Under the pieces are notes generated by a model. It did not search any database. It saw nothing but the letters and a program-made list of their open reading frames with translations, and was not told the DNA's origin. From the IMG/VR virus record IMGVR_UViG_3300036045_000513, positions 1,201 to 65,200 of that record: DNA of 64,000 nt; one strand, 5' to 3'. Position numbers and translations under genes: made by a program. Source of the stretch: a virus. Lineage: Duplodnaviria > Caudoviricetes. This document shows positions 5,736-64,000 of the stretch, piece by piece (position 1 is the stretch's first letter; every line of letters begins with the position of its first letter).

Positions 5736-5737
5736 CG

Positions 5738-6562: not shown

Positions 6563-6564
6563 TG

Positions 6565-6897
6565 TGGACGCTCCTGGTCTCTGGTTCTCTCGGCGCTGCG
6601 GGCTCGCTCATAGATCATGGTGCACTCCGTCACCCTGGCTCGCTCACCTATCGTGGCACTCTCTGCGGTCATGACTCGCTCGCGCTGTCTGGCTCTCTCA
6701 TGATCAGTGGCTCGCTCTCGCCGACTGGCTCTCTCGTACAGCATGGCTCGCTCACCATGGATGGTTCACTTCGCCGCTCTGGCTCGCTCGCGGGGATTGG
6801 CTCTCTCGCATGGAATGGCTCGCTCCCGAATCGTGGCGCTCTCTGAGCCTTTGGCTCGCTCCGCTGATATGGCGCCCTCACAGTCTTTGGCTACACC
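6565..6897 (-). ncRNA. TIGR-like dual-repeat guide-RNA array (about 9 units of 36 nt)
   Basis: Exact 18-nt period from 6582 to 6888; repeat A GAGCGAGCCA alternates with looser repeat B GAGAGAGCCA-like; 18 unique 8-nt spacers. Confidence 0.88.
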
Positions 6898-7268
6898 TTG
6901 AACCCCTCACGCTTCGTCCGTTCGACGTAGTCGTCGGTGAGCGGGTCGTGCACCGCCTCGTCCTCGCGGGCCCGCTGGATGACCTCGATGCGCCTCTCGA
7001 TCCCGCGGCGGATGGTTTCCTTCGTGACGTAGTTCAGGATCCACGTCGCCCGTGCGAGCCAGATGGGAGGGCCGTCGCCCGGGGCGACGAACAGGCCCTC
7101 GCCGGACTCGTAGGCTTTGCGCTTCGCGGCGCCCAACCCGCCGGGGAAGTAGATCAGCTGCACCAGCGCCTCGTTGCGGGCGACATCCCACCCGACGATC
7201 TCGCGCTCGCCGTTCTCGTAACTGATTTCGGAGAAGTCGACGATGACGTTCGGCCTGATGATTCCCAT
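6891..7268 (-). CDS. hypothetical protein immediately upstream of the array
   Basis: GAGGAG RBS then MGIIRPNVIVDFSEISY...; stop codon lies inside the first degenerate repeat; alternative GTG start at 7406. Confidence 0.7.
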   Translation of the reverse strand: MGIIRPNVIVDFSEISYENGEREIVGWDVARNEALVQLIYFPGGLGAAKRKAYESGEGLFVAPGDGPPIWLARATWILNYVTKETIRRGIERRIEVIQRAREDEAVHDPLTDDYVERTKREGFKV

Positions 7269-48411: not shown

Positions 48412-49311
48412 ATGACGACCCGTAATCCGTTGATGGACCCGGTGTGGTTCACGCCGCCGGATGGCAGCTCGCGCTCGCTCTGGAAGAGCAAGCCGAGTCC
48501 GCCGCAACAAGATCCCGCCGTCGGTCAGGCCGCGCAGGCAAACGCCGAGGTCAGCCGGGAAGCGCTCGCGTTCTCGAAGGAGCAGTGGGAGGAAGGCAAG
48601 GAGCGCCGCGATTGGGAGTTCGAGACGGCCAAGACCTCTACCGACTTCGCGCTGCGCTCGCTCGAGAAACAGGAAGGGATCAGCGACGACTACTACAAGT
48701 ACCTGACCGATACGTTCTGGCCGCTCGAAAAGGACATCGTCGGGCAGGCGCAAGCCTACGACACGCCGGAGCGCCGCGAAGAGGAAGCCGGGCGTGCCGC
48801 CGGCGAGGTTCGCACGCAGTTCGGCGTCACCCGCGCGCAGTCGGAGCGCGAGGCCGGCCGGTACGGCGTCTCGCCGAACCAGCTCAACGCGCGCTACGGG
48901 GTCGAGATGGACGCTGCCGAGGCGGCGGCCGCCGGCAAGGCGTCGAACGATGCCCGCCGCACGGTCGAGCAGATCGGCTTTGCCCGGAAGATGGACGCCG
49001 CCTCGCTCGGCCGCAACCTGCCTTCCAGCCAGGCGACGGCCGCACAGATCGGCCTGCAATCGGGCAACGCCGCCACCGGCAACGCGATGGCCTCGGGGGC
49101 GAGCTCGCGCGCCGATGCAGCGCTCAACCTCTCCGGCTACGGCACCGCCATCAGCGGGAACACAGCCGCCGGCAACCTGCTGAACAGCCAGTACAACGCC
49201 AACCTCCAAGGATGGGGCGTCGGCCAGCAGGCGGCAGCGGCACAAGCTGCTGGCACCGGGCAGATGGTCGGCACCGCCGCCGGCATCGGCATCGCGGCGA
49301 TCGCGCTGTGA
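48412..49311 (+). CDS. internal virion/ejection protein
   Basis: Ala/Gln/Gly-rich; follows the GNAT gene as in P22 gp14-gp7. Confidence 0.7.
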   Translation: MTTRNPLMDPVWFTPPDGSSRSLWKSKPSPPQQDPAVGQAAQANAEVSREALAFSKEQWEEGKERRDWEFETAKTSTDFALRSLEKQEGISDDYYKYLTDTFWPLEKDIVGQAQAYDTPERREEEAGRAAGEVRTQFGVTRAQSEREAGRYGVSPNQLNARYGVEMDAAEAAAAGKASNDARRTVEQIGFARKMDAASLGRNLPSSQATAAQIGLQSGNAATGNAMASGASSRADAALNLSGYGTAISGNTAAGNLLNSQYNANLQGWGVGQQAAAAQAAGTGQMVGTAAGIGIAAIAL

Positions 49312-50042
49312 CCGTGCCCTGGACGAACGACGACAAGGTCGTCCTGCACTTCAGCGGCGGGAAGGACTCTCTCGCCTGCCTGTGGCTCTACCGCGACCGA
49401 TGGGACGAGATCACCGTCCTGTGGTGCAACACCGGTGCCGCGTATCCGGAAACGGTCGCCTACATGCGCAAGATCGACAGCCTCGTGCCGTACTTCGACG
49501 AGGTGCGCAGCGACCAGCCGGCCTACATCGCGGCGAACGGCTGGCCGGTGGATATCCTGCCGATGCGCGCGAGTCCGGTTGGCCGGCTGATCCACGGCGA
49601 CGACGGCCAGAAGTTCACCGGCTACATGGCCTGCTGCGCCGAGAATATCTGGCAACCGCTCGCGGCACGGACGCGCGAACTCGGCGCGACCGTGGTCCTG
49701 CGAGGGCAGAAACTCGCGGACCAGCGCAAGGCCCCGGTGCGAAGCGGCTTCATCGAGGACGGCATCCGCTACGTGTTCCCGCTCGAGGACTGGACCGACG
49801 AGATGGTGTTCGAGTACCTCGAACGGGAGCGGGCGCCGATCCCCGACTACTACCGCAACGGTGAGGTGTCGAGCCATGACTGCGCGGACTGTTCGGCATA
49901 CCTGGACGAGAACATCACGCGGCTTGCAAACCTCCCGCCGGAGAGGCGCGTGGTGGTGTTCGAGCGGCTGGCAACGATTCGCGCCGCCGCGCGGCGGGAG
50001 ATGAAGCTGCTCGACGAGGCGATCGAGCGCATCAGCGACTAG
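49308..50042 (+). CDS. PAPS-reductase-family (PP-loop) protein
   Basis: FSGGKDS, W.NTG.AYPET, CC..NIW.P, RGQK..D, PL.DWT, DC.DC. Confidence 0.88.
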   Translation: MTVPWTNDDKVVLHFSGGKDSLACLWLYRDRWDEITVLWCNTGAAYPETVAYMRKIDSLVPYFDEVRSDQPAYIAANGWPVDILPMRASPVGRLIHGDDGQKFTGYMACCAENIWQPLAARTRELGATVVLRGQKLADQRKAPVRSGFIEDGIRYVFPLEDWTDEMVFEYLERERAPIPDYYRNGEVSSHDCADCSAYLDENITRLANLPPERRVVVFERLATIRAAARREMKLLDEAIERISD

Positions 50043-50050
50043 GAGACGAT

Positions 50051-51781
50051 ATGGCTTGGGGTTCGTTCGGTGGCGGCTTCGCCGGTGGCTTGGCGGTCGG
50101 CTTCGGGGTCGGGAAGGGCGCGTACGACCTCTACGAAGCGAGCGAGAAGAACGAGCGCGAGAAGGCGTATCAGAACGAGCTCAAGGGGCTCGGCAGCTGG
50201 CCGCCGGCCGGGCCGGACCAGTCGTTCAAGAGCGATACCGGTGCCGCGCCGATCGCGCAGGCGAGCGATCCCGCCACCGCAGCCGCAGCGACCGGCGGGG
50301 CCGAGAACGCTGGCGCCATCATGCCGAGCCGCTTGATGGACGACGGGGGGCAGGCCGGCGCCGCCGGCGGAAGCATCGACCCAGAGGCCGCGCGCAAAGC
50401 CCAACGCAAGGCCACGCTCTCGAACCCCGCCGCGGCGATCGACTACGTGAACCGTCGCGCCGCGATCGACCTCAAGTACGGGAAGATGCACGGCGAGGGC
50501 CTCCTCCGGCTCACGCAGACGATCGACAACATGAAGAAGGAGGGCTACGTCGAGGCGATCAGTCTCTTCGACCGCGGGCAGGTGCAGGAGGGCCTTTCGA
50601 AGCTGAACGGCTCCGGGCAGGACACCGGCTACGAGCTCGTGTCGTGGGACCGCGGGACCTCGAAGGTCGGTGATCAGGACGTCCCGACGATGAAGGTCAC
50701 GCTGCGCGACCGCGAGGGGAACCTCGTGAACCTCGACACGGCGCAGACGAAGTTCGGCCTGATGGGGATGAAGGACCAGCTCCACGCCTACGGCGAGGCA
50801 CGGCGCGCGCGCGCCGCGGAGCGTACCGCCGACGCGGACACGAAGCTCAAAGCCGAGCAGACGCGGGTGCAAAAGGCGTTCGCCGACAATCTCGAGGAGG
50901 GTCTGTCGCGCGAAGGACGTGATCCGACCGCGCCAGGCGGGAAAGGCGGCAAGCAGCCCGACGACGGCAAGTGGACCAAGGACCACCAGGCGGTGCTCGA
51001 CGACATCCGCAAGGGCATCGTCGACGACCACGGCGACAAGAACCCCGACCCGTTGAAATCGGACAAGGTGCCGAACGACCAGACCCGGCGCATGGGCGCG
51101 ATGGGCGAGTCGATGTATCGCCACTCGGTCAAGACCGGCGAGCCGATGGGGCCGGCCGAGGTGCGCGAGGTGCTCAAGAGCGGCCAGTTCCGCACCGACA
51201 TCGTGGCGCGCGACGAGTCCGGCGCGCTGGTGCGACGCGCCGGGTTCGTGGTCAAGGATCCTGTCAGCGGCCAGCCGCGGGCGTACTTCACCGATCACCG
51301 GCCGGTCGCGCTCACCGCGGAGGAGCAGCAGCGGTTCGAGGGGCGGCAGACCGCCGGGGGCCAGCCGGCCGCGGCGCCCGCCAGCGCCGCGCCGGCGCAG
51401 CGCCCGCCGGCGCCAGCGCCGCGCCCGGGCGGCGCGCAAGGCGCGCCAGCGCCGGTTCAGGCTGGCGCGGAACCGCCGCGCGCGCCGCGCGCGCAGCCGC
51501 CGGCCTCCCCGCAGCGCCAAGGGAACGAGCGGGCGCCGCTCGCCGGCGCCGGCCAGGCGATCACCGACACGGTCAGCCGGTGGGGGCAGGCGATCGCCGA
51601 CGCCTTCCGCTCCGGCAACGAGCGGGCGATGGCGAACATCATGCAGAACCCGCAGCTTCCCGAAGCCGAGCGCCGCGCGATGGCGGAACGGATCCTCGCC
51701 GACCCGCAGGCCCGCTCGCCCGAGCTCGTCGCCGCGGCGCGCGCAGTGCTGAACCCGCAGACCGCCACCGAAGGCCGGTAG
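50051..51781 (+). CDS. internal virion/ejection protein
   Basis: Gly-rich N-terminus FGGGFAGGLAVGFG; 576 aa. Confidence 0.7.
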   Translation: MAWGSFGGGFAGGLAVGFGVGKGAYDLYEASEKNEREKAYQNELKGLGSWPPAGPDQSFKSDTGAAPIAQASDPATAAAATGGAENAGAIMPSRLMDDGGQAGAAGGSIDPEAARKAQRKATLSNPAAAIDYVNRRAAIDLKYGKMHGEGLLRLTQTIDNMKKEGYVEAISLFDRGQVQEGLSKLNGSGQDTGYELVSWDRGTSKVGDQDVPTMKVTLRDREGNLVNLDTAQTKFGLMGMKDQLHAYGEARRARAAERTADADTKLKAEQTRVQKAFADNLEEGLSREGRDPTAPGGKGGKQPDDGKWTKDHQAVLDDIRKGIVDDHGDKNPDPLKSDKVPNDQTRRMGAMGESMYRHSVKTGEPMGPAEVREVLKSGQFRTDIVARDESGALVRRAGFVVKDPVSGQPRAYFTDHRPVALTAEEQQRFEGRQTAGGQPAAAPASAAPAQRPPAPAPRPGGAQGAPAPVQAGAEPPRAPRAQPPASPQRQGNERAPLAGAGQAITDTVSRWGQAIADAFRSGNERAMANIMQNPQLPEAERRAMAERILADPQARSPELVAAARAVLNPQTATEGR

Positions 51782-51784
51782 CCG

Positions 51785-54700
51785 ATGGCAGAGCAGTTCC
51801 TCGGGTTCCTCGACGAGCCCGGCGGCCCCGCTTCGCCTGCTGCGGCACCGGAGCGCCCGGCGCCAGCGCGCGACCGCGCCTCGGCCGCCGAGCGCGACCT
51901 CCGCTCGCGGATGTTCACCCCGGAGGAGAGCGACCAGATCCTCGCGCGCGAGGTGCAACCCGACGCCCGCGCGGCGTTCCGGCGCGCGATCGACGCCGAG
52001 CGCGACCCGAAGGCCAAGGCCATCCTGCTGTCCGAGTACGAGCGCGACGCCGAGCGGGCGACCCGACTTGCCGGGCAGACGCCAGCCGCCACCGGTGACC
52101 AGCCCATCGAAGAACCAACCGCCGAAACCATGCCGGTCCGCGCGCCGCGCGCGCGCCGCGTCGCTGCGCCGGCAACGCGCCACGTCCCCGAGCTCGTCGG
52201 TTTCCTCGACGACCGCCCGCTCGAGGAGCCCGCCGCCGCGAAGCCGAAGCCCGCCGGGGCCGGTCTCGGTACTCGGATGGCCGACCTCGGCGTGTCGGCC
52301 GCCGCCGGCGTCGGCTCGCTGGTCGAGATGGGCGGGACGATCGCCCGCCTCGCCACCGGCGAGGACAACTTCGTCAGGCAGTTCGGCGAGGAGGTCCGGG
52401 AGTATTGGGAGGGCCGGAAGTCCGAGGACCTGAAGGCCCGTGAGCAGACCCGGCGCCAGCGGATCGACTCGACAGAGGGCGAGTTCGGGAAGGCCATCGC
52501 CGCGATCAGCGCCACGATCAGCGATCCGCCGCTCTTCGCGGCGTTCCTCGCGGAGCAGATCCCGCAGTTCATCCCCGGCATGGCGGTCGGAAGGGCGCTG
52601 ACGGGCGTCGCCACGGCACTGAAAGCCGGCGAAGCGGCTACCCGCGCGGCTGGCATCGGCGGCGCTGTAGCGGCCGGCGCAGCCTTCCAGGGCGCTGACA
52701 TCGCCGGCGACACGATCGAGCGGCTGCTGAAACTCCCGGACCACGTGTGGGCGCAGCACCCCGGCTTCGCCGCGGCGGTTGCCGCCGGCGAGGATCCCGC
52801 CGCGGCGAAGCAGCGCATCGCCACGCAGGAGGGCCGGCAGGCGTTCGCGCTCGCCGGCGCGGTGTCCGCGCTCGCGCAGGCGATCCCCGGCGGGACGACG
52901 ATCGAGCGCGTCCTAGCGGGAGTCGGCGGCCGCGGCGGCGGGTTCCTCCGCGGTGCCATCAAGGGGCTCGTCGGCGAGGGGATCTCGGAAGGGGTCGAGG
53001 AGGGCAGCGGGCAGGCGATCGCCAACCTCGGCGTCCAGTCGGTCGACCCGTCGCAGTCGCTCACGCAGGGTGTCGGCGAGGCCACTGGCCTTGGAACTCT
53101 CATGGGCGGCACGTTCGGCGGTGCGCTGGGTGGCTTCCAGCGCCCGGGAGAACCGCCGCGGGCGAAGCCGAAGGACGAGGATGGCGCGGTCCCGGTCGAG
53201 GAGGTGCTCGGCCCGCAGCCCGGTCAATCGGGTGGTGGCGCGACTGTCGACCGGAATCAAGCCGCTACGGTCGCCAGCAACCTCATGCCGGTGCCGGTGC
53301 AGGTCTCGCAGCCGACGCAGGAGGAGCAGCAGCGTCAAGCGGTTGACCGGCTGACCGAAATCGAGGCTCGCGAGCGCGAGCTCAGTCAACTCGTCGCCGA
53401 GGGCAACACCGACACCTCGGACGACATGGCAAAGCTCCGCGCGGCGAACGCCAAGGTGGAGTTCCGCGTGCTCGAGCGGGAGCGCCGGCAGATCGTCACC
53501 GCGATGGGCGGCGAGAACGCCGCGCGCGACGTGATGGCCGGTTCACGGCCGGTGATGCAAGTGAGCGCTGACGGCGAGGCGAGCCCGGTGGAGGCGGCTG
53601 GCCCGGTAGGAGCCGGGACTTCGCTCAGTTCACCCCCAGGATCGCTCAGTACGCCGCCGGCGGCCGTCGAAACCCCCGAGGACGCCCCCACACCGGCCGA
53701 GCTCAAGGCCGAGGCGCTGAGCCAGAAGCGTTCGGAGATTGCCAAGCGCGAGGCCGCGAAGCGAGCCAAGATCGACATCGGCAAGGACTCGCTCCTCACC
53801 GCCATCGCCAAGCTGGGCGGCCTGAAGCGCGACCAGGCGATCGGAGAATGGGGCCTCGATCCGAAGGGCATCCCGAAGTCCGGCCTGTTCGGCCGGCCGA
53901 TCCTGCGGGCGACCGGCGGCAACACTCTCGACGCGATGGGCGAGAAACTCGCCGAGCTCGGCTACCTGCCGGTCGACGAGCACGGGAAGCACGACCTCGC
54001 CTCGTTCGAGGCCCTGCTGGACCGCGAGCTCCGCGGCGAGCCGCAGTACACCCCCGAGGGGTGGGAAGCGCGCGCGCGCGCCGAGCGTGAGGCCGAGGTG
54101 CCGGAGGCAGAAGCCGCGGCGATCGCGCCGCCGCCCGACGTTGCCGCGCTGCCGGCGCCGCAGAGCGAGGAGATCGACGCGCTCGAGCTCAGCCCCGAGG
54201 ACATCGCCGAGTTCGAGCGCCACGACGCTGGCGAGCAGGCGAGCGCCGAGGCGCTGGTCGAGGGCCTGCGCGGCCGATTCGACGGCACCGAGGCCGAGTC
54301 CTTGGTCGACAAACTCATCGAGCGCGCCGCCATCGAAACGCAGGACCAGCCGGCGAGTGCGTTCCATGCTGCTATCATCCGCGGCGTACGAGAGGTCAAG
54401 GCCCGTGCTCAAGATCCCCAAGGACAACCCGCACCGCAAGAGCGCGGTACGGATCGCGAAGCTGGCGAAGCGCCTCCTGCGCGCGGGCCGCCCAAAGGTG
54501 GCCCCGCCGAGCGACCCGCTCAAGAAGAAGCCCCGGCCCTCGAGCTAGCCCCGCAGTCCCCGGACGACCTCCGGCGCCGCGACGACGAATCGAAGGCGCG
54601 CGCCGAAGCGATCCGCAAGGAGCAGGAGCGCGCCGCCGCCCCGCCGCCGGCGGACTTCACGCTCACCGGCTCCGATCGCCCCGCCGATCAGGCGGCCGCG

Positions 54701-57700
54701 CGCGGGCAGGGCGGGCTGTTCGAGAAACCCGAACCCGCAGCACCGGCGACGGATCAGGCTGGACCCCGGGGCGAGGCCGGCCCGTCGTCGGTGCCGGGCC
54801 AAGCAACTGCAACACCGGCGCAAGCCCAGGTCCGCCCGTCGGCACCGCCCGAGTCTGTCGGACAGGTGCCCGCGCCGGCGGTTGCGGCCCCGGAGGAATC
54901 TGCAACGCCAGCCGCGAAGGTCAAGGCCGAGGCCGAGCGCGCGAAGCAGCCGCGGAAGGGCAAGGCGGCTGACTCGAAGCCAACGAAACCGCCGGCCAAA
55001 CAGAAGCCCATCGCCGCCGAGATCGACCGCGCGAAAGAGAAGCAGGCCCGCGCTGACCTCGATGCTGCCCTCGGCGAACTCGGCGAGCTGCTCGGGAAGA
55101 ACGTCAAGAAGAACATCACGCCCGAGCAGGAGCAGAAACTCCTCCCGATCCTCACGCGCGTATTCGATGCGGCGTTCCGCCTCGGCTACCTGAAGTTCAA
55201 GCAGGCCGCGCGCTTCGTATTGGAAACGATCCGCGCGAAGTTCGGCAACGACATTGCCGACAAGATCACGATTGACCATCTGCAGGGCGCCTACATCGCT
55301 CTCGGGCGTGACGGCAAAAGCAGTAAGTCAGAGGTGATCTCTTACGACTCGCTGGCTTCGCTTGTTGCCGAGTCCGATGCGGGTGTCGAATCCAGCGCGT
55401 CGGAGGTGAGTGCGAACGGTCTCGTGGCTAACCCCGAGGCGCTCACCAATCTCAGTGCAGTTCAGCCCGGAGCGAAAGAGCGCCGCAGCCGCGGCGATGT
55501 CGAGCCGCTGCGGAGCGTGTATCGCTTGATGCGCCGAATCGCTGAGGACCGCGAGGTTCTCGATTCTGTTGTCCGTTCGATCCCCGTTGATGTGGTGAAC
55601 GTGCTCCGTCGGGAGGAGTTTTCTCCCGAGAGCCTGTTCCATAACCCATCGGTGCTCGAAAACTTGGCCGGACTCCGAGGCAACGCGCCTGTATCCGGCG
55701 GCGTCAGTGCAGCCCGTGCGGTGATAGAGGCCACTGCAGCGTTTGCTGCAAAACCGGCCGGGGCGGAGCATCTTCGAGGCGCTTCGTTTGACCTCGACGC
55801 CGCATTGAATGCAATTGAAGGCGGGCGTAGTGGCTCTCCTAGTGGAGAGCGGATTGTACCAACGGAATCGACCGCTCTTGAAGCCGCCGCCGCCGAAGCC
55901 GACACCTCGCCGAGCGAAGCGCAGAAGGACGCGAACAACTACCGCCACGGCCACCTCACGGTCGCCGGACTCGACGTGTCGATCGAGAACCCCGCTGGCT
56001 CGACGCGCTCCGGTACCGGCACCGACGGCAAACCGTGGTCGGTAGTGCTCCGCTCTCACTATGGTTATCTTCGCGGCACCGAGGGCGCAGACGGCGACCA
56101 CGTCGACATCTTCATCAAGCCCGGCACGCCCCAGGACTACGACGGCCCCGTGTTCATCGTCGACCAGACGAAGCGCAACGGCCATTTCGACGAGCACAAG
56201 CTCCTTCTCGGCTGGCCGACCATCAACGAGGCATCCGGCGCCTTCCTCGAGAACTACGACGACCCAGAAGCGGCGAAGAAGCGCATCCGCAAGGTGACCG
56301 AGTGGACGCTGCCCGAGCTGAAGGCGTGGCTCGAGAGCGGCAAGCGGGAGAGGCCCGCTGCCGAGAGTACAATTCCCACTGAGGCTCCCAATGCTACAAG
56401 TCGCGACCCCGATCTGGAACGCGATCGCAGCGAACCAGATCCTCAAGAACGAGTGGGCGAGGGCGCTTTTCTCCCTACCGCCGGGCGAGATGATCGCGGA
56501 GATGGACAGACAGGCGACCTCTTTGGCGAAGCGCGGGATCCCGAATCCGGTCATCCTCGCCTACCAGACCGTCGCACCACTCCTCGCGGAGAACCTGGCG
56601 ATCAGCCGATTCATCGCGGAGACGGAGAACTTGGGACTGAGAGCGGCACTGCCGGAAGTGACCAGCGTCGCGGAAGCGCTCCTGTACGCTATCCCGGAGT
56701 ACAACCTGACGCAGCCGCAGGCGGCGCAGCTGAGAGAACTGCTCGAACGCTTGTAGGGCTCGAGCAGAAGCGCCTCGCCCAGCGCGCCGCCGAGAAGATC
56801 CCGGTCCAGACCGGCGACCTCGACAACATCCGGGCGACGCTCCCCTACCTCCTCGAAGGCCAGCAGGACGACGTCAAGTTCGCCGAGGACCGGTTCGCCG
56901 CCGGCGGGTACGGCGTGCTGTTCACGAACGGCACCGGTACTGGCAAGACCCTGGTTGGCCTCGGCATCATCAAGCGCGAGGCCCGTCGCGGCAACGAGGA
57001 CATCCTCATCGTCGCGCCGTCAGACACGATCCTGAAGGCGTGGATCGACTCCGGGTCGGAGCTCGGCCTGAAGATCCAGCAGCTCGCCGACACGCAGACG
57101 AACGGCGGCCGCGGGATCACCGCGACGACCTACGCCAACTTCCAGCAGAACGCCTCCTTGGTGAAGCGCCAGTGGGGCCTCGTCGTGTTCGACGAGGCGC
57201 ACAACCTCAACCAGAACAAGACCGGCGAAACCACCGAGGCGATGCGTGCCATGCACGCCGTCGCGAAGCACCCGAATCGTGGCAGCTATGACTTCGCCAA
57301 ACGCCTGTACCCGGAGGAGTGGGCGGCCTACGAGCGGGCAAGCGAGCTCGCCGAGAGCTACGTGCGCCGGCGCGCGCCGGTGCCGCCGGAGATCCGCGCC
57401 GAGCTCGAGCGCGCCCGCGCGGCGTGGCAGGCCGCCGAAGCGAAGGCGAAACCGGCGTGGGAGGCTCGCCCGCGGTCGCGCGCGGTGTTCCTCTCCGCGA
57501 CCCCGTTCGCCTACCACAAGACCACCGATTGGGCCGAGGGCTATCTCTTCGACTACGCGCCAGTGGAGGACGCCGGCTACAACAAGCGAAGCGGCGGACA
57601 GGACGCCTTCCTCATCGAGAAGTTCGGCTACCGCTTGCGGACGAACAAGCTCACCGAGCCCGAGGCGGGCGTCGACGTCTCGCTCATGGAGATCCAGTTC

Positions 57701-60700
57701 AACCAGTGGTTGAAGGATCAGAAGGTGCTTTCCGCTCGGGTGCTGGACGTCGACGCCGACTACGACCGCCGGTTCATCCTCACCGAGTCGGCCCTCGGGC
57801 GCCTGGTCGACGACGGCATCGACTTCCTGCGCGACGGCGGCGACTACAAGAGCGGCCACAAGTGGGAGCCGCTGTGGGCGAACCTGAAGGCCAACTGGCA
57901 GTACCACGATCGCCTCTATCTGCTTGAGGCGCTGAAGGCGCGCGCCGCCGTGCCGATGGTGAAGAAGCACCTCGAGCTGGGCCGCAAGGTCGTGGTGTTC
58001 CACGGCTTCAACAAGGGCGGCGGCTTCCATCCGTTCCGGTTCACGAAGTCGCCGGGCCGCACGGTCACCTATACGGTGAATCAGCGGCCGGTCACGGTGA
58101 AGTGGGACGACCTCGTCGACGAGTTCGAGAAGGCGCGCCCGGACCTCGCGAAAGCCGACTTCGACGGCCTCGGCTCGCCGCTCACCACGTTCAAGAAGGC
58201 GTTTCCCGACGACGCGGTGTTCTTCAACGGCACCGTGAGCCCGAAGGAGCGGCTGCGCGCGAAGAACGGTTTCCAGATCGACAACGATCCCGCCGTCATC
58301 ATCGTCGTGCAGCAGGATGCAGGTGGTGCTGGCGTGAGCCTCCACGACCAGACCGGGAAGCACCCGCGCGTGCTGATCAACCTCGGCCTGCCGATCAAGC
58401 CGACGCAGACGATCCAGACCGAGGGGCGGATCTACCGCGTAGGGCAGGCGTCGGACGCGATGTTCCGCTACCTCAACACCGGGACCAACTTCGAGCGCTG
58501 GACGTTCGCGTCCGTCATCAGCGAGCGCGCCGGCACCGCGGAAAACCTCGCCCTCGGCGCCGAGGCCCGCCGCCTCAAGGACTCGTTTGTCGAGGCGTTC
58601 CAGGACTCCGGTGACGCGAACATCGGCCCCGACGAAGGGACCGGCGGCAAGGCGAGGGACCGCGCCGACCGTCGCACGATCACCGATTTCGACAAGGCGA
58701 TCACCTACTACTACGCGAAGCAGAAACGCGCCGAGCGGCGCGACAACCGCCAGGGCGTCGACTACTTCGCCACCCCGGAGCCGCTCGCGCTGAAGATGGT
58801 GGAGTGGGCCGGGATCCGTCCCGGCGACGAGCTGCTCGAGCCCTCGGCCGGCCACGGCGCCATTGCGCGCTGGTTCCCGCGGCTGAACAAGGCGAAGATG
58901 GTCGAGCCCTCGTTCGAGCTCGGCACGCAGGCCGCGCTCGTCTCCGGCGCCGAGCTCGTCGGTGGCCGATTCGAGGACCACAACATCGTCAACAAGTACG
59001 ACGCCATCGTGATGAACCCGCCGTTCGGGCACGGCGGTTCGACGGCGATGGAGCACTTGAACAAGGCGGCCGGACACCTGCGCGACGGCGGGCGGATCGT
59101 CGCGCTGATCCCGACAGGACCCGCGGCCGACAAGGCGTTCGAGAAGTGGCTCTACGGCGACGAGAAGGACAAGGGCCTCAACTACGCCGCCGGGATGTAC
59201 CTCGCCGCGGACATCAACCTGCCGCGCGTGACGTTCGAGCGCGCCGGCACGAGCGTTGCCGCGCGCATCGTGGTGCTCGACCGCATCAACGACGTCAAGA
59301 CCGCCGAGAAGGTCCCGCAGCAGGTGTCGCGCGACTGGCGCGAGTTCGAGTCGATCAAGGACTTCTTCGAGCGGATCCGCGAGGCCGAGATGCCCGGCCG
59401 GCCGGAAGTCACGAAGGTCCAGGCGGCGACCGCGAAGGAGAAAGCCCGCGGCGCGACGGTGAAAGCCGGCAAGTGGTCGTTCGTGCTCGCGCCGGACAAG
59501 ACCGCGAGCGGCCGGGAAACCTTCACCGCGAAGCCAACCGAGCGCGTCGGCGACGAGTTCAGGTCGATGGCCAGCAAGGCGAAGTCGGCCGGCGGGTACT
59601 ACGTCCGCGGGTTCGGCAAGTTCGCGTTCTACAGCGAGGCCGACCGGCAGAAGTTCCTCGATAGCCTCGGCGGCGCGTTGTCGATCGACGATGCTACACT
59701 GCCCCGCGATGACGACCCTACGCCAGAAGAAGGCGCGCCGCTGGAGAGCCTTCGAGCGCTCTTTGCGGCAAAAAGCGGCCTCGCTATCCCGGAAGGGTCA
59801 ATCACTCGGGCCCCAATTCCTCCCGCACTCCAACCGCTCGCCGAGTGGGTCCGTGTACGTTTCGGCACCGAGGTTGTCGCCTACCGAGTGGGTGAAGGTG
59901 CTCCGCGCCCGATCGCATCTATCGCTGGAGCGAATCTTGGCGGACGCCTTTACATCCGAGCGAACGAGCGGGGACGAGCACACCTAACCGTCCTCGGGCA
60001 CGAGTTCCTGCATCAGCTGCGTCGCGACGACGAGGCGCTGTACCAGGAATTCATCCGCCTCGTCCGGCCCTACATCGACGCCGGCCGCTACGTCGACTTC
60101 TTCGCCGCAGCGAAAGAGAAGGGCTACGCGGAAGGCGAGATCTTCGAGGAGTTCATGGCGGACGTCCTCGGCGATGCGTTCACCAGCGAGTCGTTCTGGC
60201 AGACGCTCGGCCGCCAGAATCCCACGCTCCTCGAGCGCGTGTATGCCGTCCTGCGCTCGCTGGTACAGGCTGCGCGCCAGGCGCTCGGCGGACAGACGCG
60301 GATGGGCCCCTACCTCACCGACTACGACCGCGTCATGCGGATGGCTGGCGTCGTCGTCGCGAAGTACGCGGTCCGCGCCGAGGCCCAACGTGCTGGGCGC
60401 AAGGGCGAAGGGAAGCTGCACCGCGCCTACCACGGTTCGCCGCACGACTTCGATAAGTTCTCGTTGCAGAAGATCGGCATCGGCGAGGGCGCGCAGGCTT
60501 ACGGGTGGGGGATGTACTTCTCCAGCAAGAAAGAGGTGGCGGAATGGTACAAGCGCGAGCTGAAAGGCCGCAGTCCCGAGGCTGTTCGTCGCGCCGAGCT
60601 ACAGCAGCAGATCGACAGTCTGTTGGCTAAGGAGTCGCGCGCGCGAGGCGAGGCTCGACATGACCGCGCCGACGAACTGCTGCGTCAGGCCGGCGCCCTT

Positions 60701-63700
60701 TCAGACGAGCGCGATGCGATTCCCGAACCGAAAGGCCGCCTCTACACCGTCGATCTCGCGCCGCCCGAGGATTCGTATCTCGATTGGGACCGCCCGCTGT
60801 CAGAGCAGAGCGAGAGGGTCAAGGCGGCGCTTGCAACAGCCGGTCTTGCCGGTCCTACTCCGACGCCGAAATGGTCGCCGCGCGCCGACGGCGGGCAGGA
60901 GTACCGCGACTGGCGCGGCAATCGCCTGGGCGAATTCATTCCGAACAAGGCCGGCGGTTACGATTTCTACCACACGGCAAGCGGAAACCTGAAGTTTGAC
61001 TATCGTGGATGGGCAAAGACGCAAGAGGCGGCGCGCGCTGAAATTGAGCGCGGCAGTCAGCAGGAGTGGATCAACGCGCCGATGCTCGGCCGCGACCTGT
61101 ACGGCAACCTCGCCAAGAGCCTGATGCGGCGTTTGAGCGGCGAGGAGTTGCTCGATTTCAAGAACCAGATCGGCGCGTTTGATAGCAGTCAAGAGGCCGC
61201 CTCGAAGTACCTCCTCTCCCTCGGCATCCCCGGCCTGACCTACAAGGGCGCAACGAGCGGCGAGCGGAACTACGTGATCTTCGACGACAGTCTCGTGCGC
61301 ATCGAAGGAAAACTGTCCGTCGACGCGACCACAGACGACATCCTCGCCCCGCGCGCCCGCGTGGCGCCCCTCGACGCGATCGCCCGCGGTGTGTCCACCG
61401 CCACCGGCCTCACCCCGGCCTCGAAGTGGATCATCGACCAGCTGCTCACCAAGATCGGCGACCGCGTGCCGGAATCTGTGAAAGCCGGCGTCGTCGACAA
61501 GTACGGCCTGGACGAGCCCTACAAGCAACGTCGTGCTCTTGCTTTCGCTTCGATCCGCGGCCACTACCGCGATGGTCAGCGCTTCATCGACGCCCTCGGC
61601 CAGATCACCCGCGCCGAGGCGCGGATCATGCACGAGTGGATGACCAATCCGGAGGCGCGCACCGACGAACTCGAGCGCCAGCTCAAGCCCGAGCAGCTCG
61701 AGCGCCTGAAGGCGATGCGCGAGCACGTCGACAAGATCGGCTTGGAGGCCGTCCGCCTCGGGGATCTATCGAACGAGGTCTACGAGCGCCACAAGGGCGC
61801 CTACCTGCATCGCAGCTACCTGCGCCACGAGGTCGAAGCGACCGAAGGCGAGCAGCGCGCGCGCGCACGCGCGGTGCGGATCCTTGGCGACCAGTACAAC
61901 CTGCGCGGCATCAAGCACGAAGTCTCGCCGGACCAGGTGCTCTCGGTGCTCCCCAAGGAGTGGGGACTTCGCGCGAAGAAGCGCGGCGTCGAGGCGACGT
62001 TCCTCGGCAAGAAGTTCATCCGCTTCGAGCGCTACCAGAACCGTGGTGAAGGCACCGCCACGCTCGATGGGATGCCGGACCCCGCCGGCAAGGGGAAGTT
62101 GCTCGAGGTCGCCTACTGGCCCGAGGGCGAGGCCGTTCCGGCGCGCCTCGGCGACTGGTACCGCGAGCAGACCTGGGAGGCCCGTTGGGCGAAGGGCGAC
62201 AAGATCGTGATGCACCGCGACTTCACGCCCGACGAGCAGCAGAAGATGGGCGTCATCGACGAGGTCCGGTTCGCGGTCGCTCGCACGCTGCAGAAGATGG
62301 GCCACGACATCGAGATCAGCCGGTTCCTTGAGTGGATCGCTGATACCCATGCCAAGCCGGACGGCAAACTCCCCGCCGGCGCGATCCGCGTCCCGGCGAA
62401 GGAGGGCCTGTGGCGCGCGTTCGGCAAGGACGAGTGGGTGCAGGTGCCCGACACCGAGATCGGCAAGACCGGGGTGAAGAAGTACGGGAAGCTCTCCGGC
62501 CTGTGGGTGCCGGGCCCGATCTGGAACGATGTCCGCCAGCTTCGCACGATGGGCGCGTTCGGCCCGGAGTGGTTCCAGTCGATGATGCGCAGCTGGAAAC
62601 TCATGAAAACGGCCCTCAGCCCGGCCGTCCACATGAACAACACGATGGGCAACGTGTTCATGGCCGACTGGCACGACGTCGGGGCCCGCGCGATCAAGGA
62701 CGCGCTCGAGGTCATGGCGAAGCCCGAGGCGCCGGCGCACAAGCAGCTCATCGAGGAGTTCGAGGACGACGGCGGCACGCAGGGCATGTACGTGCTGTCC
62801 GAGTTGCAGAAGAACCAGCTGAAGCCGCTCCTCGACCAGCTTCGCGCGGAGATCGCCGAGAACGGCGAGACGATCCAGACGCAGGTCAGCGCCGCGCACG
62901 TCGCGACGCTGCTCGGTGAGCGCCGGTTTGCCGACGCCTGGGCGGCCGCGAAGCTATCGAAGCCCGGCAACTTCATCCGCCGCGGCGGGCAGTTCATGAT
63001 CGACCTGTACCAAGACGAGGACACGGTGTTTCGCCTCGCCGCCTACATCCAGGCGCGCCGCGACGGCAAGAGCAGGCTGGAAGCCGGGAAGTTCGCCCGG
63101 GAGTCGTTCCTCGACTACGACATCAATGCTCCCTGGGTCCAGATGGCGCGGCAGACCATCTTCCCGTTCATCAGCTTCGTCTACCGGGCGGTCCCCATGA
63201 TCGTGCGGACGGCGCGCGATCGCCCGTGGAAGCTCCTCAAGCTCGCCGCGGTCGCCGGCGCGCTGAACGCGCTCGCCTACGCCGCCACCGGCGCCGATGA
63301 GGACGACGAGCGCGAGGCCCTGCCGGACGAGAAGCGCGGGAAGGTGCTCGGGTTCCTCGTACCGAAGTTGCTGCGGATGCCGTGGAACCGCGACGGCAAT
63401 CCAGTGTTCCTCGACATCCGCAGGTTCGTGCCGGTGGGCGACATCATCGACTTCGAGCAGACCCACACCGCGATCCCGGTGCCGCCGCCGATGGTGCCCT
63501 CAGGGCCGATCGCGATCCTCTTTGAACTCGTCCTGAACCGCTCCGCGTTCACCGGCCAGCCGATCGTGAAGGAGACCGACACGCTCGCCGAGGCCGCGCA
63601 GAAGGTGCTGAACCACGCCTACAAGTCGTTCACCCCGAACCTGCCGGGCCTGCCGGCGACCTACTCGACCGAGCGGCTCATGAAGGCCGCGCGCGGTGAA

Positions 63701-64000
63701 ACCGATGCCCTCGGGCGCGAGTACGGCGTGCTCGAGGCCCTAGCGAGCTCGGTCGGGGTGAAGTTCGATCGCTTCCCGCCGGATGCGACGATGCTGCGCC
63801 TGGCGATCGAGCGCCGGCGGGCCGCCGAGGAGATCGAGCTCAACATCCGGCGCGCAGCACGGCGCGTTGCCACAGGCGGGATGGACCGGGACGACTTCGA
63901 CGAGCTCCGCGATCGCGAGATGGCGAAGCTGCGGGCGATCAACGAGAAGCTGGCGACGCGGCTCGCGGCGGCGAGGCGGCTGCAGGAGGCCGCGCGGTAG
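51785..64000 (+). CDS. 4071-aa DarB-like large polyvalent virion protein
   Basis: InPase-like (SIENP.GS.RSG..HYGY..G.DGD.VD, about 55940-56340); SF2 helicase (GTGTGKT, DEAHN, SAT); adenine MTase (LEPSAGHG, NPPF); zincin HEFLH near 60000; YHGSPHDFDKF domain near 60420; helical C-terminal region. Confidence 0.9.
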   Translation: MAEQFLGFLDEPGGPASPAAAPERPAPARDRASAAERDLRSRMFTPEESDQILAREVQPDARAAFRRAIDAERDPKAKAILLSEYERDAERATRLAGQTPAATGDQPIEEPTAETMPVRAPRARRVAAPATRHVPELVGFLDDRPLEEPAAAKPKPAGAGLGTRMADLGVSAAAGVGSLVEMGGTIARLATGEDNFVRQFGEEVREYWEGRKSEDLKAREQTRRQRIDSTEGEFGKAIAAISATISDPPLFAAFLAEQIPQFIPGMAVGRALTGVATALKAGEAATRAAGIGGAVAAGAAFQGADIAGDTIERLLKLPDHVWAQHPGFAAAVAAGEDPAAAKQRIATQEGRQAFALAGAVSALAQAIPGGTTIERVLAGVGGRGGGFLRGAIKGLVGEGISEGVEEGSGQAIANLGVQSVDPSQSLTQGVGEATGLGTLMGGTFGGALGGFQRPGEPPRAKPKDEDGAVPVEEVLGPQPGQSGGGATVDRNQAATVASNLMPVPVQVSQPTQEEQQRQAVDRLTEIEARERELSQLVAEGNTDTSDDMAKLRAANAKVEFRVLERERRQIVTAMGGENAARDVMAGSRPVMQVSADGEASPVEAAGPVGAGTSLSSPPGSLSTPPAAVETPEDAPTPAELKAEALSQKRSEIAKREAAKRAKIDIGKDSLLTAIAKLGGLKRDQAIGEWGLDPKGIPKSGLFGRPILRATGGNTLDAMGEKLAELGYLPVDEHGKHDLASFEALLDRELRGEPQYTPEGWEARARAEREAEVPEAEAAAIAPPPDVAALPAPQSEEIDALELSPEDIAEFERHDAGEQASAEALVEGLRGRFDGTEAESLVDKLIERAAIETQDQPASAFHAAIIRGVREVKARAQDPQGQPAPQERGTDREAGEAPPARGPPKGGPAERPAQEEAPALELAPQSPDDLRRRDDESKARAEAIRKEQERAAAPPPADFTLTGSDRPADQAAARGQGGLFEKPEPAAPATDQAGPRGEAGPSSVPGQATATPAQAQVRPSAPPESVGQVPAPAVAAPEESATPAAKVKAEAERAKQPRKGKAADSKPTKPPAKQKPIAAEIDRAKEKQARADLDAALGELGELLGKNVKKNITPEQEQKLLPILTRVFDAAFRLGYLKFKQAARFVLETIRAKFGNDIADKITIDHLQGAYIALGRDGKSSKSEVISYDSLASLVAESDAGVESSASEVSANGLVANPEALTNLSAVQPGAKERRSRGDVEPLRSVYRLMRRIAEDREVLDSVVRSIPVDVVNVLRREEFSPESLFHNPSVLENLAGLRGNAPVSGGVSAARAVIEATAAFAAKPAGAEHLRGASFDLDAALNAIEGGRSGSPSGERIVPTESTALEAAAAEADTSPSEAQKDANNYRHGHLTVAGLDVSIENPAGSTRSGTGTDGKPWSVVLRSHYGYLRGTEGADGDHVDIFIKPGTPQDYDGPVFIVDQTKRNGHFDEHKLLLGWPTINEASGAFLENYDDPEAAKKRIRKVTEWTLPELKAWLESGKRERPAAESTIPTEAPNATSRDPDLERDRSEPDPQERVGEGAFLPTAGRDDRGDGQTGDLFGEARDPESGHPRLPDRRTTPRGEPGDQPIHRGDGELGTESGTAGSDQRRGSAPVRYPGVQPDAAAGGAAERTARTLVGLEQKRLAQRAAEKIPVQTGDLDNIRATLPYLLEGQQDDVKFAEDRFAAGGYGVLFTNGTGTGKTLVGLGIIKREARRGNEDILIVAPSDTILKAWIDSGSELGLKIQQLADTQTNGGRGITATTYANFQQNASLVKRQWGLVVFDEAHNLNQNKTGETTEAMRAMHAVAKHPNRGSYDFAKRLYPEEWAAYERASELAESYVRRRAPVPPEIRAELERARAAWQAAEAKAKPAWEARPRSRAVFLSATPFAYHKTTDWAEGYLFDYAPVEDAGYNKRSGGQDAFLIEKFGYRLRTNKLTEPEAGVDVSLMEIQFNQWLKDQKVLSARVLDVDADYDRRFILTESALGRLVDDGIDFLRDGGDYKSGHKWEPLWANLKANWQYHDRLYLLEALKARAAVPMVKKHLELGRKVVVFHGFNKGGGFHPFRFTKSPGRTVTYTVNQRPVTVKWDDLVDEFEKARPDLAKADFDGLGSPLTTFKKAFPDDAVFFNGTVSPKERLRAKNGFQIDNDPAVIIVVQQDAGGAGVSLHDQTGKHPRVLINLGLPIKPTQTIQTEGRIYRVGQASDAMFRYLNTGTNFERWTFASVISERAGTAENLALGAEARRLKDSFVEAFQDSGDANIGPDEGTGGKARDRADRRTITDFDKAITYYYAKQKRAERRDNRQGVDYFATPEPLALKMVEWAGIRPGDELLEPSAGHGAIARWFPRLNKAKMVEPSFELGTQAALVSGAELVGGRFEDHNIVNKYDAIVMNPPFGHGGSTAMEHLNKAAGHLRDGGRIVALIPTGPAADKAFEKWLYGDEKDKGLNYAAGMYLAADINLPRVTFERAGTSVAARIVVLDRINDVKTAEKVPQQVSRDWREFESIKDFFERIREAEMPGRPEVTKVQAATAKEKARGATVKAGKWSFVLAPDKTASGRETFTAKPTERVGDEFRSMASKAKSAGGYYVRGFGKFAFYSEADRQKFLDSLGGALSIDDATLPRDDDPTPEEGAPLESLRALFAAKSGLAIPEGSITRAPIPPALQPLAEWVRVRFGTEVVAYRVGEGAPRPIASIAGANLGGRLYIRANERGRAHLTVLGHEFLHQLRRDDEALYQEFIRLVRPYIDAGRYVDFFAAAKEKGYAEGEIFEEFMADVLGDAFTSESFWQTLGRQNPTLLERVYAVLRSLVQAARQALGGQTRMGPYLTDYDRVMRMAGVVVAKYAVRAEAQRAGRKGEGKLHRAYHGSPHDFDKFSLQKIGIGEGAQAYGWGMYFSSKKEVAEWYKRELKGRSPEAVRRAELQQQIDSLLAKESRARGEARHDRADELLRQAGALSDERDAIPEPKGRLYTVDLAPPEDSYLDWDRPLSEQSERVKAALATAGLAGPTPTPKWSPRADGGQEYRDWRGNRLGEFIPNKAGGYDFYHTASGNLKFDYRGWAKTQEAARAEIERGSQQEWINAPMLGRDLYGNLAKSLMRRLSGEELLDFKNQIGAFDSSQEAASKYLLSLGIPGLTYKGATSGERNYVIFDDSLVRIEGKLSVDATTDDILAPRARVAPLDAIARGVSTATGLTPASKWIIDQLLTKIGDRVPESVKAGVVDKYGLDEPYKQRRALAFASIRGHYRDGQRFIDALGQITRAEARIMHEWMTNPEARTDELERQLKPEQLERLKAMREHVDKIGLEAVRLGDLSNEVYERHKGAYLHRSYLRHEVEATEGEQRARARAVRILGDQYNLRGIKHEVSPDQVLSVLPKEWGLRAKKRGVEATFLGKKFIRFERYQNRGEGTATLDGMPDPAGKGKLLEVAYWPEGEAVPARLGDWYREQTWEARWAKGDKIVMHRDFTPDEQQKMGVIDEVRFAVARTLQKMGHDIEISRFLEWIADTHAKPDGKLPAGAIRVPAKEGLWRAFGKDEWVQVPDTEIGKTGVKKYGKLSGLWVPGPIWNDVRQLRTMGAFGPEWFQSMMRSWKLMKTALSPAVHMNNTMGNVFMADWHDVGARAIKDALEVMAKPEAPAHKQLIEEFEDDGGTQGMYVLSELQKNQLKPLLDQLRAEIAENGETIQTQVSAAHVATLLGERRFADAWAAAKLSKPGNFIRRGGQFMIDLYQDEDTVFRLAAYIQARRDGKSRLEAGKFARESFLDYDINAPWVQMARQTIFPFISFVYRAVPMIVRTARDRPWKLLKLAAVAGALNALAYAATGADEDDEREALPDEKRGKVLGFLVPKLLRMPWNRDGNPVFLDIRRFVPVGDIIDFEQTHTAIPVPPPMVPSGPIAILFELVLNRSAFTGQPIVKETDTLAEAAQKVLNHAYKSFTPNLPGLPATYSTERLMKAARGETDALGREYGVLEALASSVGVKFDRFPPDATMLRLAIERRRAAEEIELNIRRAARRVATGGMDRDDFDELRDREMAKLRAINEKLATRLAAARRLQEAAR
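54405..54548 (+). CDS. nested +1-frame basic peptide (47 aa)
   Basis: TGC-TATCAT extended -10, GAGG RBS, VLKIPKDNPHRKSAVRIAKLAKRLL... Confidence 0.4.
   Translation: MLKIPKDNPHRKSAVRIAKLAKRLLRAGRPKVAPPSDPLKKKPRPSS
55328..55828 (-). CDS. HNH endonuclease nested antisense in the giant gene
   Basis: C..CG, FCSKRC, GYRR, EHRWVMEQALGRKL..EHVHHINGDRTDNRIENL, C-terminal HTH; RBS AGGAGA precedes ACG (55828); next ATG at 55771. Confidence 0.85.
   Translation of the reverse strand, partial: TPAFNCIQCGVEVKRSASKMLRPGRFCSKRCSGLYHRTGCTDAAGYRRVASESGQVFEHRWVMEQALGRKLLPTEHVHHINGDRTDNRIENLAVLSDSAHQAIHAPQRLDIAAAAALFRSGLNCTEIGERLGVSHETVRTHLRRAGFDTRIGLGNKRSQRVVRDHL
56391..56756 (+). CDS. nested +1-frame helical protein (121 aa)
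   Basis: TACAAT, GAGG RBS, ATG; globular-looking sequence where the main frame is linker-like. Confidence 0.6.
   Translation: MLQVATPIWNAIAANQILKNEWARALFSLPPGEMIAEMDRQATSLAKRGIPNPVILAYQTVAPLLAENLAISRFIAETENLGLRAALPEVTSVAEALLYAIPEYNLTQPQAAQLRELLERL
59709..59987 (+). CDS. nested +1-frame basic ORF (92 aa)
   Basis: TGC-TACACT extended -10 ending 8 nt before ATG (leaderless geometry). Confidence 0.35.
   Translation: MTTLRQKKARRWRAFERSLRQKAASLSRKGQSLGPQFLPHSNRSPSGSVYVSAPRLSPTEWVKVLRARSHLSLERILADAFTSERTSGDEHT

Follow-up and report, generated by a model that had tools for sequence, protein, structure and literature searches.

The 64-kb window analysed here (the whole stretch of DNA, bases 1201-65200 of the 65.2-kb IMG/VR provirus record IMGVR_UViG_3300036045_000513) carries a giant gene on its plus strand and, within that gene and on the opposite strand, a complete gene for a putative HNH endonuclease (Table 1). 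The giant gene, referred to below as the host gene, stays stop-free through the segment of about 500 nt that contains the endonuclease gene, referred to as the cassette. An earlier, sequence-only reading of this DNA had described an antisense endonuclease gene lying complete inside an unbroken 12-kb open reading frame (ORF), and preceded by an extended -10 element, a hairpin overlapping the ribosome binding site and an ACG codon; all of these elements are present where that reading had placed them.

The product of the host gene belongs with the polyvalent proteins of phages, which are giant and multidomain and combine InPase, ART-PolyVal, helicase and methylase-type domains, as outlined in the accessible text of Iyer et al. 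(2017, PMC5512222). Pfam profiles detect in it an InPase domain (4.7e-44), a ResIII/Sno-type helicase (ResIII, 1e-09), a methylase-like domain and ART-PolyVal (5.5e-07, just under the cut-off), so that each of these domain types is represented. Its homologues carry names such as 'PLxRFG domain-containing protein' or are recorded as giant polyvalent proteins.

The antisense HNH gene
The minus-strand frame is open across 55328..56554 and closes with a TGA stop at 55330-55328. It is codon-aligned with the host frame in antisense orientation: the plus-strand peptide SIPVDVVNVL, for example, is encoded by the reverse complement of the EHVHHINGDR codons. The minus-strand product of 55328-55882 matches the Pfam family HNH_3 with an E-value of 7.3e-13 (48.4 bits, against a cut-off of 24.8), as the earlier reading had anticipated. 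The same product matches HNH families of the PHROG collection down to 1e-20, and its Pfam matches to helix-turn-helix (HTH) families lie below the cut-off. It is the only HNH copy in the 65.2-kb record.

Comparisons over 14 sequences throughout this work are those between the window and its 13 closest relatives with available DNA (L017-L020, L097-L104 and L108). The four cysteines of an N-terminal zinc knuckle are invariant in 14/14 sequences, as are H59, H78, H79, N87, N91 and H100 of the HNH core, and H104 is nearly so. These would be the catalytic and metal-binding His and Asn residues of the beta-beta-alpha-metal core.

An AlphaFold model of the HNH frame based on the 14-row alignment has a mean predicted local distance difference test score (pLDDT) of 81.8, with 66 residues at 90 or above. 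Among 48,161 chains, its best structural match is I-HmuI (PDB 1u3e), with Z 7.8 and a root-mean-square deviation of 2.7 Å over 69 residues, leading the next match by 2.3 Z; the C-terminal part of the model resembles many HTH domains. I-HmuI is an HNH nicking homing endonuclease of the Bacillus phage SPO1. It is of the same Pfam family type, HNH_3, and likewise consists of a nuclease core followed by an HTH DNA-binding part. Unlike the HNH gene of the window, the I-HmuI gene is located in a group I intron; sequence identity between the two is 17%, and the N-terminal CxxC...CxxxC knuckle is an extra feature of the window lineage. Profile, conserved residues and modelled fold together place the predicted product of 55328-55828 among the HNH_3, I-HmuI-like endonucleases.

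Table 1. Features of the host gene, the cassette and the start region of the antisense HNH gene (coordinates of the window)
Feature	Position	Strand	Description
Host gene	51785..64000	+	polyvalent (DarB-like, 'PLxRFG'); 4,071 codons, 12.2 kb; stop-free through cassette
Host domain 5' of cassette	55046..55363	+	aa ~1088-1193, 'LPILTRVFDAAFRLGYLKFK...HLQGAYIAL...SYDSLASL'; conserved in many cassette-free polyvalent proteins
Inserted cassette	55364..55868	.	~500 nt / 165 codons; edges +/-15 nt, from insert-less P0009; profile match aa 1196-1346
InPase domain	55916..56335	+	aa 1378-1517 (Pfam); directly downstream of cassette
HNH ORF	55328..55828	-	ACG to TGA, 166 residues; last ~12 codons and stop extend into host-derived sequence
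C-terminal helix-turn-helix	55391..55504	-	residues ~109-146 (Pfam, model)
HNH core	55517..55657	-	E58 H59 R60 ... V77 H78 H79 ... N87 N91 L92 ... H100; I-HmuI match over residues 39-108
Zinc knuckle CxxC...CxxxC	55736..55813	-	C6, C9, C27, C31
ACG at relatives' start position	55826..55828	-	by alignment; five codons before first Cys
Hairpin GCTCTCC-ACTA-GGAGAGC	55833..55850	-	7-bp stem, 4-nt loop; 3' arm is the AGGAGAGC site
AGGAG, Shine-Dalgarno-like	55836..55840	-	7 nt before ACG
TGGTACAAT, extended -10-like	55853..55861	-	no other TGnTAnnnT on this strand of the host gene; 33 nt before ACG
Two in-frame GTG codons	55954-55952, 55948-55946	-	~40 codons upstream, outside cassette; GAGG 5 nt before the second

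Insertion context of the cassette
The limits of the cassette are provided by the homologue P0009, in which both flanking domains, common to many polyvalent proteins, are present about 12 residues apart and the cassette is absent. Residues 1032-1193 and 1359-1526 of the window protein align with residues 963-1112 and 1125-1292 of P0009. Because P0009 is an insert-less version of the same architecture, the cassette can be placed at ~55364-55868 in an inter-domain linker, between the conserved 'LGYLKFK' domain and the InPase domain. Within it, less than ~40 nt is not HNH sequence. The sequence-only reading had proposed that a selfish endonuclease entered a linker of a virion-type gene without intron or intein, a proposal with which both the insert-less P0009 and the lack of detectable intron RNA or intein domain (see below) agree. 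That reading had also suggested a comparison with homologues lacking the insert; P0009 is such a homologue, of a distant architecture whose flanks are ~49% identical, and no close allele was found.

A DNA search with 54300-57300 returned phage matches that were short, distant and began after the cassette, and no plasmid matches. In the contigs of four sequencing runs (two samples, possibly the source of this DNA), the only variant over 54600-56600 is T>C at 55940, in one run (X3).

Relatives nested in the same way
Codon-aligned antisense nesting is observed in 13/13 relatives with readable DNA, in host ORFs of 606 to >3,135 codons. Among 80 IMG/VR loci, the four closest to the window (36-49% identity) are nested antisense and codon-aligned in ORFs of 1,879 to >2,801 codons; the antisense frame of the remaining loci is open over about the length of the match only in 12 and not open in 64. 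Among 80 GTDB loci, the same nesting is seen in the eight closest and in L108, with ORFs of 1,113 to >3,135 codons. In L097 the antisense frame is open along the entire 1.8-kb contig. HNH_3 is above the cut-off in all ten antisense ORFs of nested relatives tested with Pfam.

The nested relatives come from diverse phyla, with a GC content of 0.43-0.65, and their labelled hosts include Smithella, Opitutia, Phycisphaerales, Janthinobacterium, Burkholderiales, Herminiimonas and others. With identities of 30-46%, the nested loci cannot be regarded as close copies derived from a single recent ancestor. Outside the cassette there is mostly no similarity between loci, the exceptions being the pairs L098/L103 and L108/window, which share downstream sequence too. 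The flanking domains vary: 2'-5' RNA ligase, ART-PolyVal, RadC or none were found in the eight segments scanned.

A profile of the host frame across the cassette finds this module in 8 of 119 polyvalent homologues, at positions ranging from aa 265 to 2,381. Against 1.84 billion representative sequences, the same profile matches 2,631 proteins at E <= 0.001; of these, 471 reach <= 1e-10 and 113 reach <= 1e-30. The best 150 module-bearing proteins have a median length of 2,324 residues; 129 of them are at least 1,000 aa long and nine are shorter than 600. In these sequences the spread of the module is sporadic, with mostly unrelated flanks from copy to copy, as for a homing endonuclease gene.

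Some relatives of low GC content (0.29-0.35) also have a codon-aligned antisense frame that is open for nearly the exact length of the HNH ORF. The numbers of open antisense codons and HNH codons are 203/211 in L058, 246/268 in L072, 181/179 in L077/L081 and 205/194 in L044. At such a GC content, this openness is unlikely to be due to chance.

Selection on the two reading frames
Over 148 ungapped codon columns in the 14 sequences, mean amino-acid identity is 38.4% in the HNH frame vs 26.1% in the host frame. Seventeen columns are invariant in the HNH frame, including the four zinc-binding cysteines and the histidines and asparagines of the HNH core, vs two in the host frame. Differences per site at HNH codon positions 1, 2 and 3 are 0.51, 0.42 and 0.62; the first position of the host frame is therefore more variable than its third. 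These codon alignments show that purifying selection is stronger on the HNH frame.

Within the cassette, the host frame nevertheless carries constraints of its own. In free-standing relatives, the number of antisense stops per codon is 0.0305 for the 24 loci of GC 0.44-0.55 and 0.0085 for the 42 loci of GC 0.55-0.72, whereas the 13 nested loci have none. At the rate of the GC-rich free relatives, the probability of finding no antisense stop in 170 codons is ~0.23 for the window alone. For seven nested loci of GC 0.43-0.54 (L108 at 0.43 and six at 0.46-0.54), it is ~0.006 or less each. The antisense openness is thus unremarkable for the window copy taken alone, but as a family-wide pattern it is far beyond chance.

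Amino-acid composition points in the same direction. The host frame of the cassette contains no cysteine in 2,742 codons (12 loci and the window, L108 being outside the GC filter), where the antisense translation of the free relatives, with 1.89% Cys, leads to an expectation of ~52; when all 14 cassettes are taken, the count is 0 in 2,948 host-frame codons. This frame is also depleted in W, Y, H, F and M and enriched in D, E, K, N, G, S and A. The host proteins themselves share the avoidance: there are only seven cysteines in the 29,714 residues of the 14 host proteins outside the cassettes, none in the 4,071-aa host protein of the window, and 0.033% Cys in the best 150 module-bearing proteins of the large library, 93 of which have none.

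Taken together, the stop and residue counts show, at the level of sequence, that the host frame across the cassette has been kept stop-free, Cys-free and enriched in hydrophilic residues by a selection of its own, in keeping with the earlier suggestion that the endonuclease gene could invade by being stop-free on its opposite strand. Since the cassette obeys the odd composition of the host protein, the simplest explanation is that it is translated as part of that protein, and straight translation of the host frame through the cassette is most likely. Cysteine is thus strongly avoided in these giant polyvalent or injected phage proteins.

Start region and control signals of the window copy
Neither ATG, GTG nor TTG occurs in the 30 codons before the first Cys of the window HNH. 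By contrast, 12 of the 13 relatives have a canonical start two to eight codons before this cysteine (ATG in seven, GTG in two, TTG in three), several of them with a good Shine-Dalgarno (SD) site; by alignment, the ACG of the window does occupy the position at which ATG had been expected. The correspondence is clear in L104, whose M-P-T-V-Q-C aligns with the window T-P-A-F-N-C. The exception among the relatives is L100, which has an extra upstream finger and no start codon at that position. The ACG is unchanged in the contigs of all four sequencing runs. The GTG pair located further upstream (Table 1) is a possible but unsupported alternative start. This copy may be attenuated, or may have been recently inactivated, at its start codon.

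The hairpin that would sequester the SD-like site is present in both the minimum free energy and the centroid folds. A 52-nt segment containing it folds at -15.7 kcal/mol, with z -3.1 vs mononucleotide shuffles; for a 91-nt segment, z is only -1.55, and an equally good fold is obtained with 16 of 200 dinucleotide shuffles. The motif TGnTAnnnT, of which TGGTACAAT is an instance, is found seven times on the two strands of the 64-kb window, where 14.4 occurrences are expected. Transcription starting ~7 nt downstream of TGGTACAAT would begin within the 5' arm of the hairpin.

In L104, about 60 nt before the HNH start, a -10-like sequence, TGATAAACT, overlaps a CUCCC whose pairing partner is the GGAGGG SD site; on sequence grounds this is possibly a second case of the promoter/anti-SD arrangement. 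Three terminator-like sites lie within 55000-56300 of the window.

A proposed homing cycle and alternative explanations
The locus is likely occupied by a free-standing type of I-HmuI-like HNH cassette, comprising a promoter-like site, an SD site and an ORF for zinc knuckle, HNH core and HTH, which is inserted in reverse orientation, codon-aligned, into a linker of a polyvalent gene and would behave as follows. The host ribosome would read through the cassette, adding ~165 mostly unstructured residues to a tolerant, modular protein; RNA or protein splicing would then be unnecessary. The nuclease would be made from its own antisense transcript and, upon co-infection or an encounter with a prophage, would nick or cut host-gene alleles that lack the cassette, after which repair would copy the cassette into the cut allele. 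In this copy, expression would be throttled or lost through the ACG at the start position. Its SD site would be paired in the hairpin, and only a transcript from the adjacent TGGTACAAT would lack the pairing arm, as in the I-TevI scheme of T4.

It is also likely, if with somewhat less assurance, that the window copy belongs to a large and so far unpublished class comprising at least 471 protein clusters. In its members, ~500 nt would encode an HNH homing gene on one strand and, codon for codon on the other, part of a giant injected phage protein, both frames being under selection. The HNH catalytic core would be kept, and codon choice bent toward a stop-free, Cys-free, hydrophilic and linker-like host frame.

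Several observations weigh against this interpretation. The sequencing runs found to contain this stretch are all of DNA and none of RNA, and antisense transcription, translation from the ACG and read-through in the host frame are all steps that we infer. The SD hairpin is not conserved, z being between -1.7 and +1.5 in the 13 relatives and comparable anti-SD pairing being found in L104 only. A simple scan detects no full sigma-70 promoter in 55000-56300, and the upstream enrichment of TGnTAnnnT (nine occurrences in 1,400 nt before starts, at 7/14 loci, vs 0.02 per 100 nt in the rest of the host genes) is uncorrected for the lower upstream GC. A Foldseek search of the PDB with the HNH model ranks I-HmuI first at a non-significant E of 0.16 and returns nothing at E <= 0.001. 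The antisense strand was read in the 13 DNA relatives, so that eight module-bearing homologues available as protein only fall outside the count. In a quick tree of 150 HNH rows and 126 columns, from which duplicates and ORFs below 90 aa had first been removed, the nested rows are clustered (6 changes vs 13.6 in shuffles, with 0/500 shuffles as low) but not cleanly monophyletic, since they lie within a 26-row set that contains 12 non-nested rows. Lastly, no close cassette-less allele of the host gene was recovered by viral and metagenome scans, which gave the InPase part only (38-58% identity), and no joint skipping the cassette was seen in the contigs of the four sequencing runs.

The alternative that survives best concerns the state of this copy. 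The cassette could be a recently dead relic that has lost its start codon (ATG to ACG), makes no nuclease and persists as a harmless read-through linker. The absence of the usual start codons ahead of the first Cys, in a position where 12/13 relatives have one, the fixation of the ACG in contigs of 4/4 runs and the failure to see a cassette-less allele or variant make this a real possibility, albeit a minority one. The state of the gene itself argues the other way: the ORF is intact, all 17 family-invariant columns are retained in the window, and the end branch of the window (0.59) is below the median of 1.04. Moreover, AGGAG at ideal spacing and the -10-like motif are both retained, and two in-frame GTG codons lie upstream. 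In addition, ACG can act as a weak initiation codon in bacteria.

Alternatively, the plus-frame segment could be a true polyvalent-protein domain, with the antisense similarity to HNH having arisen as a by-product or surviving as a fossil of ancient date. The segment does recur: the host frame of the cassette resembles segments of the polyvalent proteins P0027, P0048, P0005, P0004 and P0056, with 47% identity to P0027 over 278 columns (E 4e-69) in an alignment that includes the upstream domain. It is also free of stops and Cys, and the middle of its AlphaFold model is helical with pLDDT ~70. However, the motif shared in the host frame, DREVLDSVV..IPVDVVN.L....LFHNPS.LE, is the exact antisense of the HNH motifs FEHRWVMEQ and EHVHHINGD..DNR.ENL, and the plus-frame similarity among polyvalent proteins is, on these alignments, a shadow cast by the HNH and weaker than it. 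Of the two frames, that of the host is less conserved (26% vs 38% identity, 2 vs 17 invariant columns, position 1 varying more than position 3). At the same 14-row depth as the HNH model, its AlphaFold model has a mean pLDDT of only 50.5, with no residue at 90 or above and 104/180 residues below 50. It matches no Pfam or PHROG family and its occurrence is sporadic (8/119 homologues) and at varying positions, while the HNH ORFs retain start codons, SD sites and catalytic residues. The sequence-only reading had named conservation of the plus segment in the absence of an intact antisense HNH as the finding that would speak against it; similar plus segments do exist elsewhere, but the HNH is intact in 13/13 DNA relatives. 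A genuine domain is therefore very unlikely.

Removal of the cassette by splicing, whether it is an intron that carries the nuclease gene in antisense or an intein whose opposite strand encodes the nuclease, has precedents: antisense nucleases in inteins have been reported (10.1101/2025.01.02.630785, in the text available), and one HNH relative, L014, lies antisense inside an intein of a terminase gene. For the window, an intron RNA is not indicated by any Rfam match at E <= 1 over 54800-56400, nor an intein by any Intein_splicing/Hint family at E <= 0.01 in the 4,071-aa host protein, both searches covering described families only. Cys-dependent intein junctions are excluded because the host frame of the cassette is without Cys, and a ribozyme core or splicing domains have no room because the HNH ORF nearly fills the cassette. 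In a spliced RNA, moreover, nothing would be gained by keeping the host frame clear of stops and Cys. Splicing is accordingly highly improbable.

Least credible is an open host frame due to chance in GC-rich DNA, the insertion having been luckily harmless: although P is ~0.23 for 170 codons at GC 0.55-0.72, 19/42 free ORFs in that range are without antisense stop, and the window contains many long spurious antisense ORFs, chance does not account for seven stop-free nested relatives at GC 0.43-0.54 (P ~0.006 or less), does not predict the absence of Cys, and does not explain why the frame is always the codon-aligned one in 13/13 relatives.

Relation to known systems
The closest known case to the nested HNH cassette is the ShiLan domain, a hidden out-of-frame HNH insertion in DNA methylase genes of mycobacteriophages (Arsenault, Gosselin, Gogarten 2025, PMC11855218). 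As presented in the available text of that paper, ShiLan resembles the window cassette in that an HNH gene lies inside an open host ORF with no intron or intein signature, is distributed sporadically as a homing element, and gives a host-frame product thought to be a tolerated loop. The ShiLan HNH is encoded on the same strand, in another frame of a methylase gene, whereas that of the window is on the opposite strand and codon-aligned in a polyvalent gene. A word search of the whole paper finds no use of antisense, reverse, opposite, complement or polyvalent.

Antisense location has been reported for endonucleases of inteins. LAGLIDADG and VSR-like homing endonucleases are found on the antisense strand of inteins (bioRxiv 10.1101/2025.01.02.630785), and an out-of-frame endonuclease in a cyanobacterial dnaX intein (bioRxiv 10.64898/2026.09.14.751524). 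To judge from the accessible portions of both reports, these cases share with the window a nuclease on the other strand or frame of an open host ORF; they differ in that the carrier self-splices and in that the antisense nucleases are LAGLIDADG or VSR-like, not HNH, while the window has no intein domain.

For control of expression, the relevant comparison is with I-TevI, segB and mobE of Aeh1, T4-type elements in which the SD site is held in a hairpin and the promoter is so placed that the inhibitory arm is missing from its transcript (Edgell et al. 2010, PMC2988022). According to the text available of that article, the predicted likeness includes an SD site ~7-8 nt before the start, sequestered in a hairpin, and an own-promoter transcript without the inhibitory arm; in addition, mobE is embedded in a host gene region and segD is antisense to its neighbours. 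The T4-type elements described there lie in introns, between genes or at a split in a host gene (Aeh1 nrdA), and none is said to overlap an uninterrupted host ORF. In contrast with the described T4 control, the control elements of the window are predicted from sequence and are not conserved in relatives.

No earlier description of an antisense, intein-free HNH layout in polyvalent or giant phage genes was found in a literature search by which subscription journals and supplements were largely uncovered. In the accessible text on polyvalent proteins (PMC5512222), HNH is mentioned once, in another context, and homing and intein are never mentioned. A hidden, splicing-free homing HNH is thus already known as a kind, and it is the antisense, codon-aligned layout in a polyvalent gene that appears, from that search, to be new.

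Homing endonucleases are thought to spare the host gene only by residing in an intron, in an intein or between genes. The layout proposed here would need none of these: read from the other strand, the nuclease gene would simply encode an innocuous stretch of protein, a splicing-free route for a mobile gene into coding DNA. If this is correct, these loci would be among the best-supported long antisense overlapping gene pairs of prokaryotic viruses and would offer a natural and widespread system in which to test how selection acts on antisense genes that overlap completely, of which solid prokaryotic examples are few. They would also serve as a warning for annotation, since a segment of ~165 'unknown' residues in a giant phage protein can simply mirror a gene encoded opposite to it. 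The near-total lack of Cys, which the cassette obeys, may be a separate clue to the travel of injected proteins. At the level of this copy, the ACG with intact SD, hairpin and promoter-like site makes attenuation or decay of an element of this kind directly testable.

Two further hiding places are seen among relatives of this nuclease. The first is antisense in an intein: the HNH_3 relative L014:3950-4447 (+) lies antisense in an intein (Intein_splicing, E 7e-12) of the terminase large-subunit ORF L014:2124-4631 (-), which is open for 836 codons. The second is on the same strand and out of frame in methylase genes: HNH_3 relatives are found in this position in the N6_N4 methylase ORFs of L120 (5896-6468 (+), within 5340-7139 (+)) and L013 (2242-4545 (+)). 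These ORFs, from a Pseudonocardia metagenome-assembled genome and a viral contig, are open for 599 and 768 codons, respectively, and have a ShiLan-like layout.

Neighbouring genes
Two genes upstream of the giant gene, an ORF at 48444-50042 (+) contains a PAPS_reduct domain (E 1.4e-11). Between this ORF and the giant gene lies an ORF of 576 codons (50051-51781) with no Pfam match. At the other end, the stop codon of the giant gene (63998-64000) is the final codon both of the window and of the provirus record.

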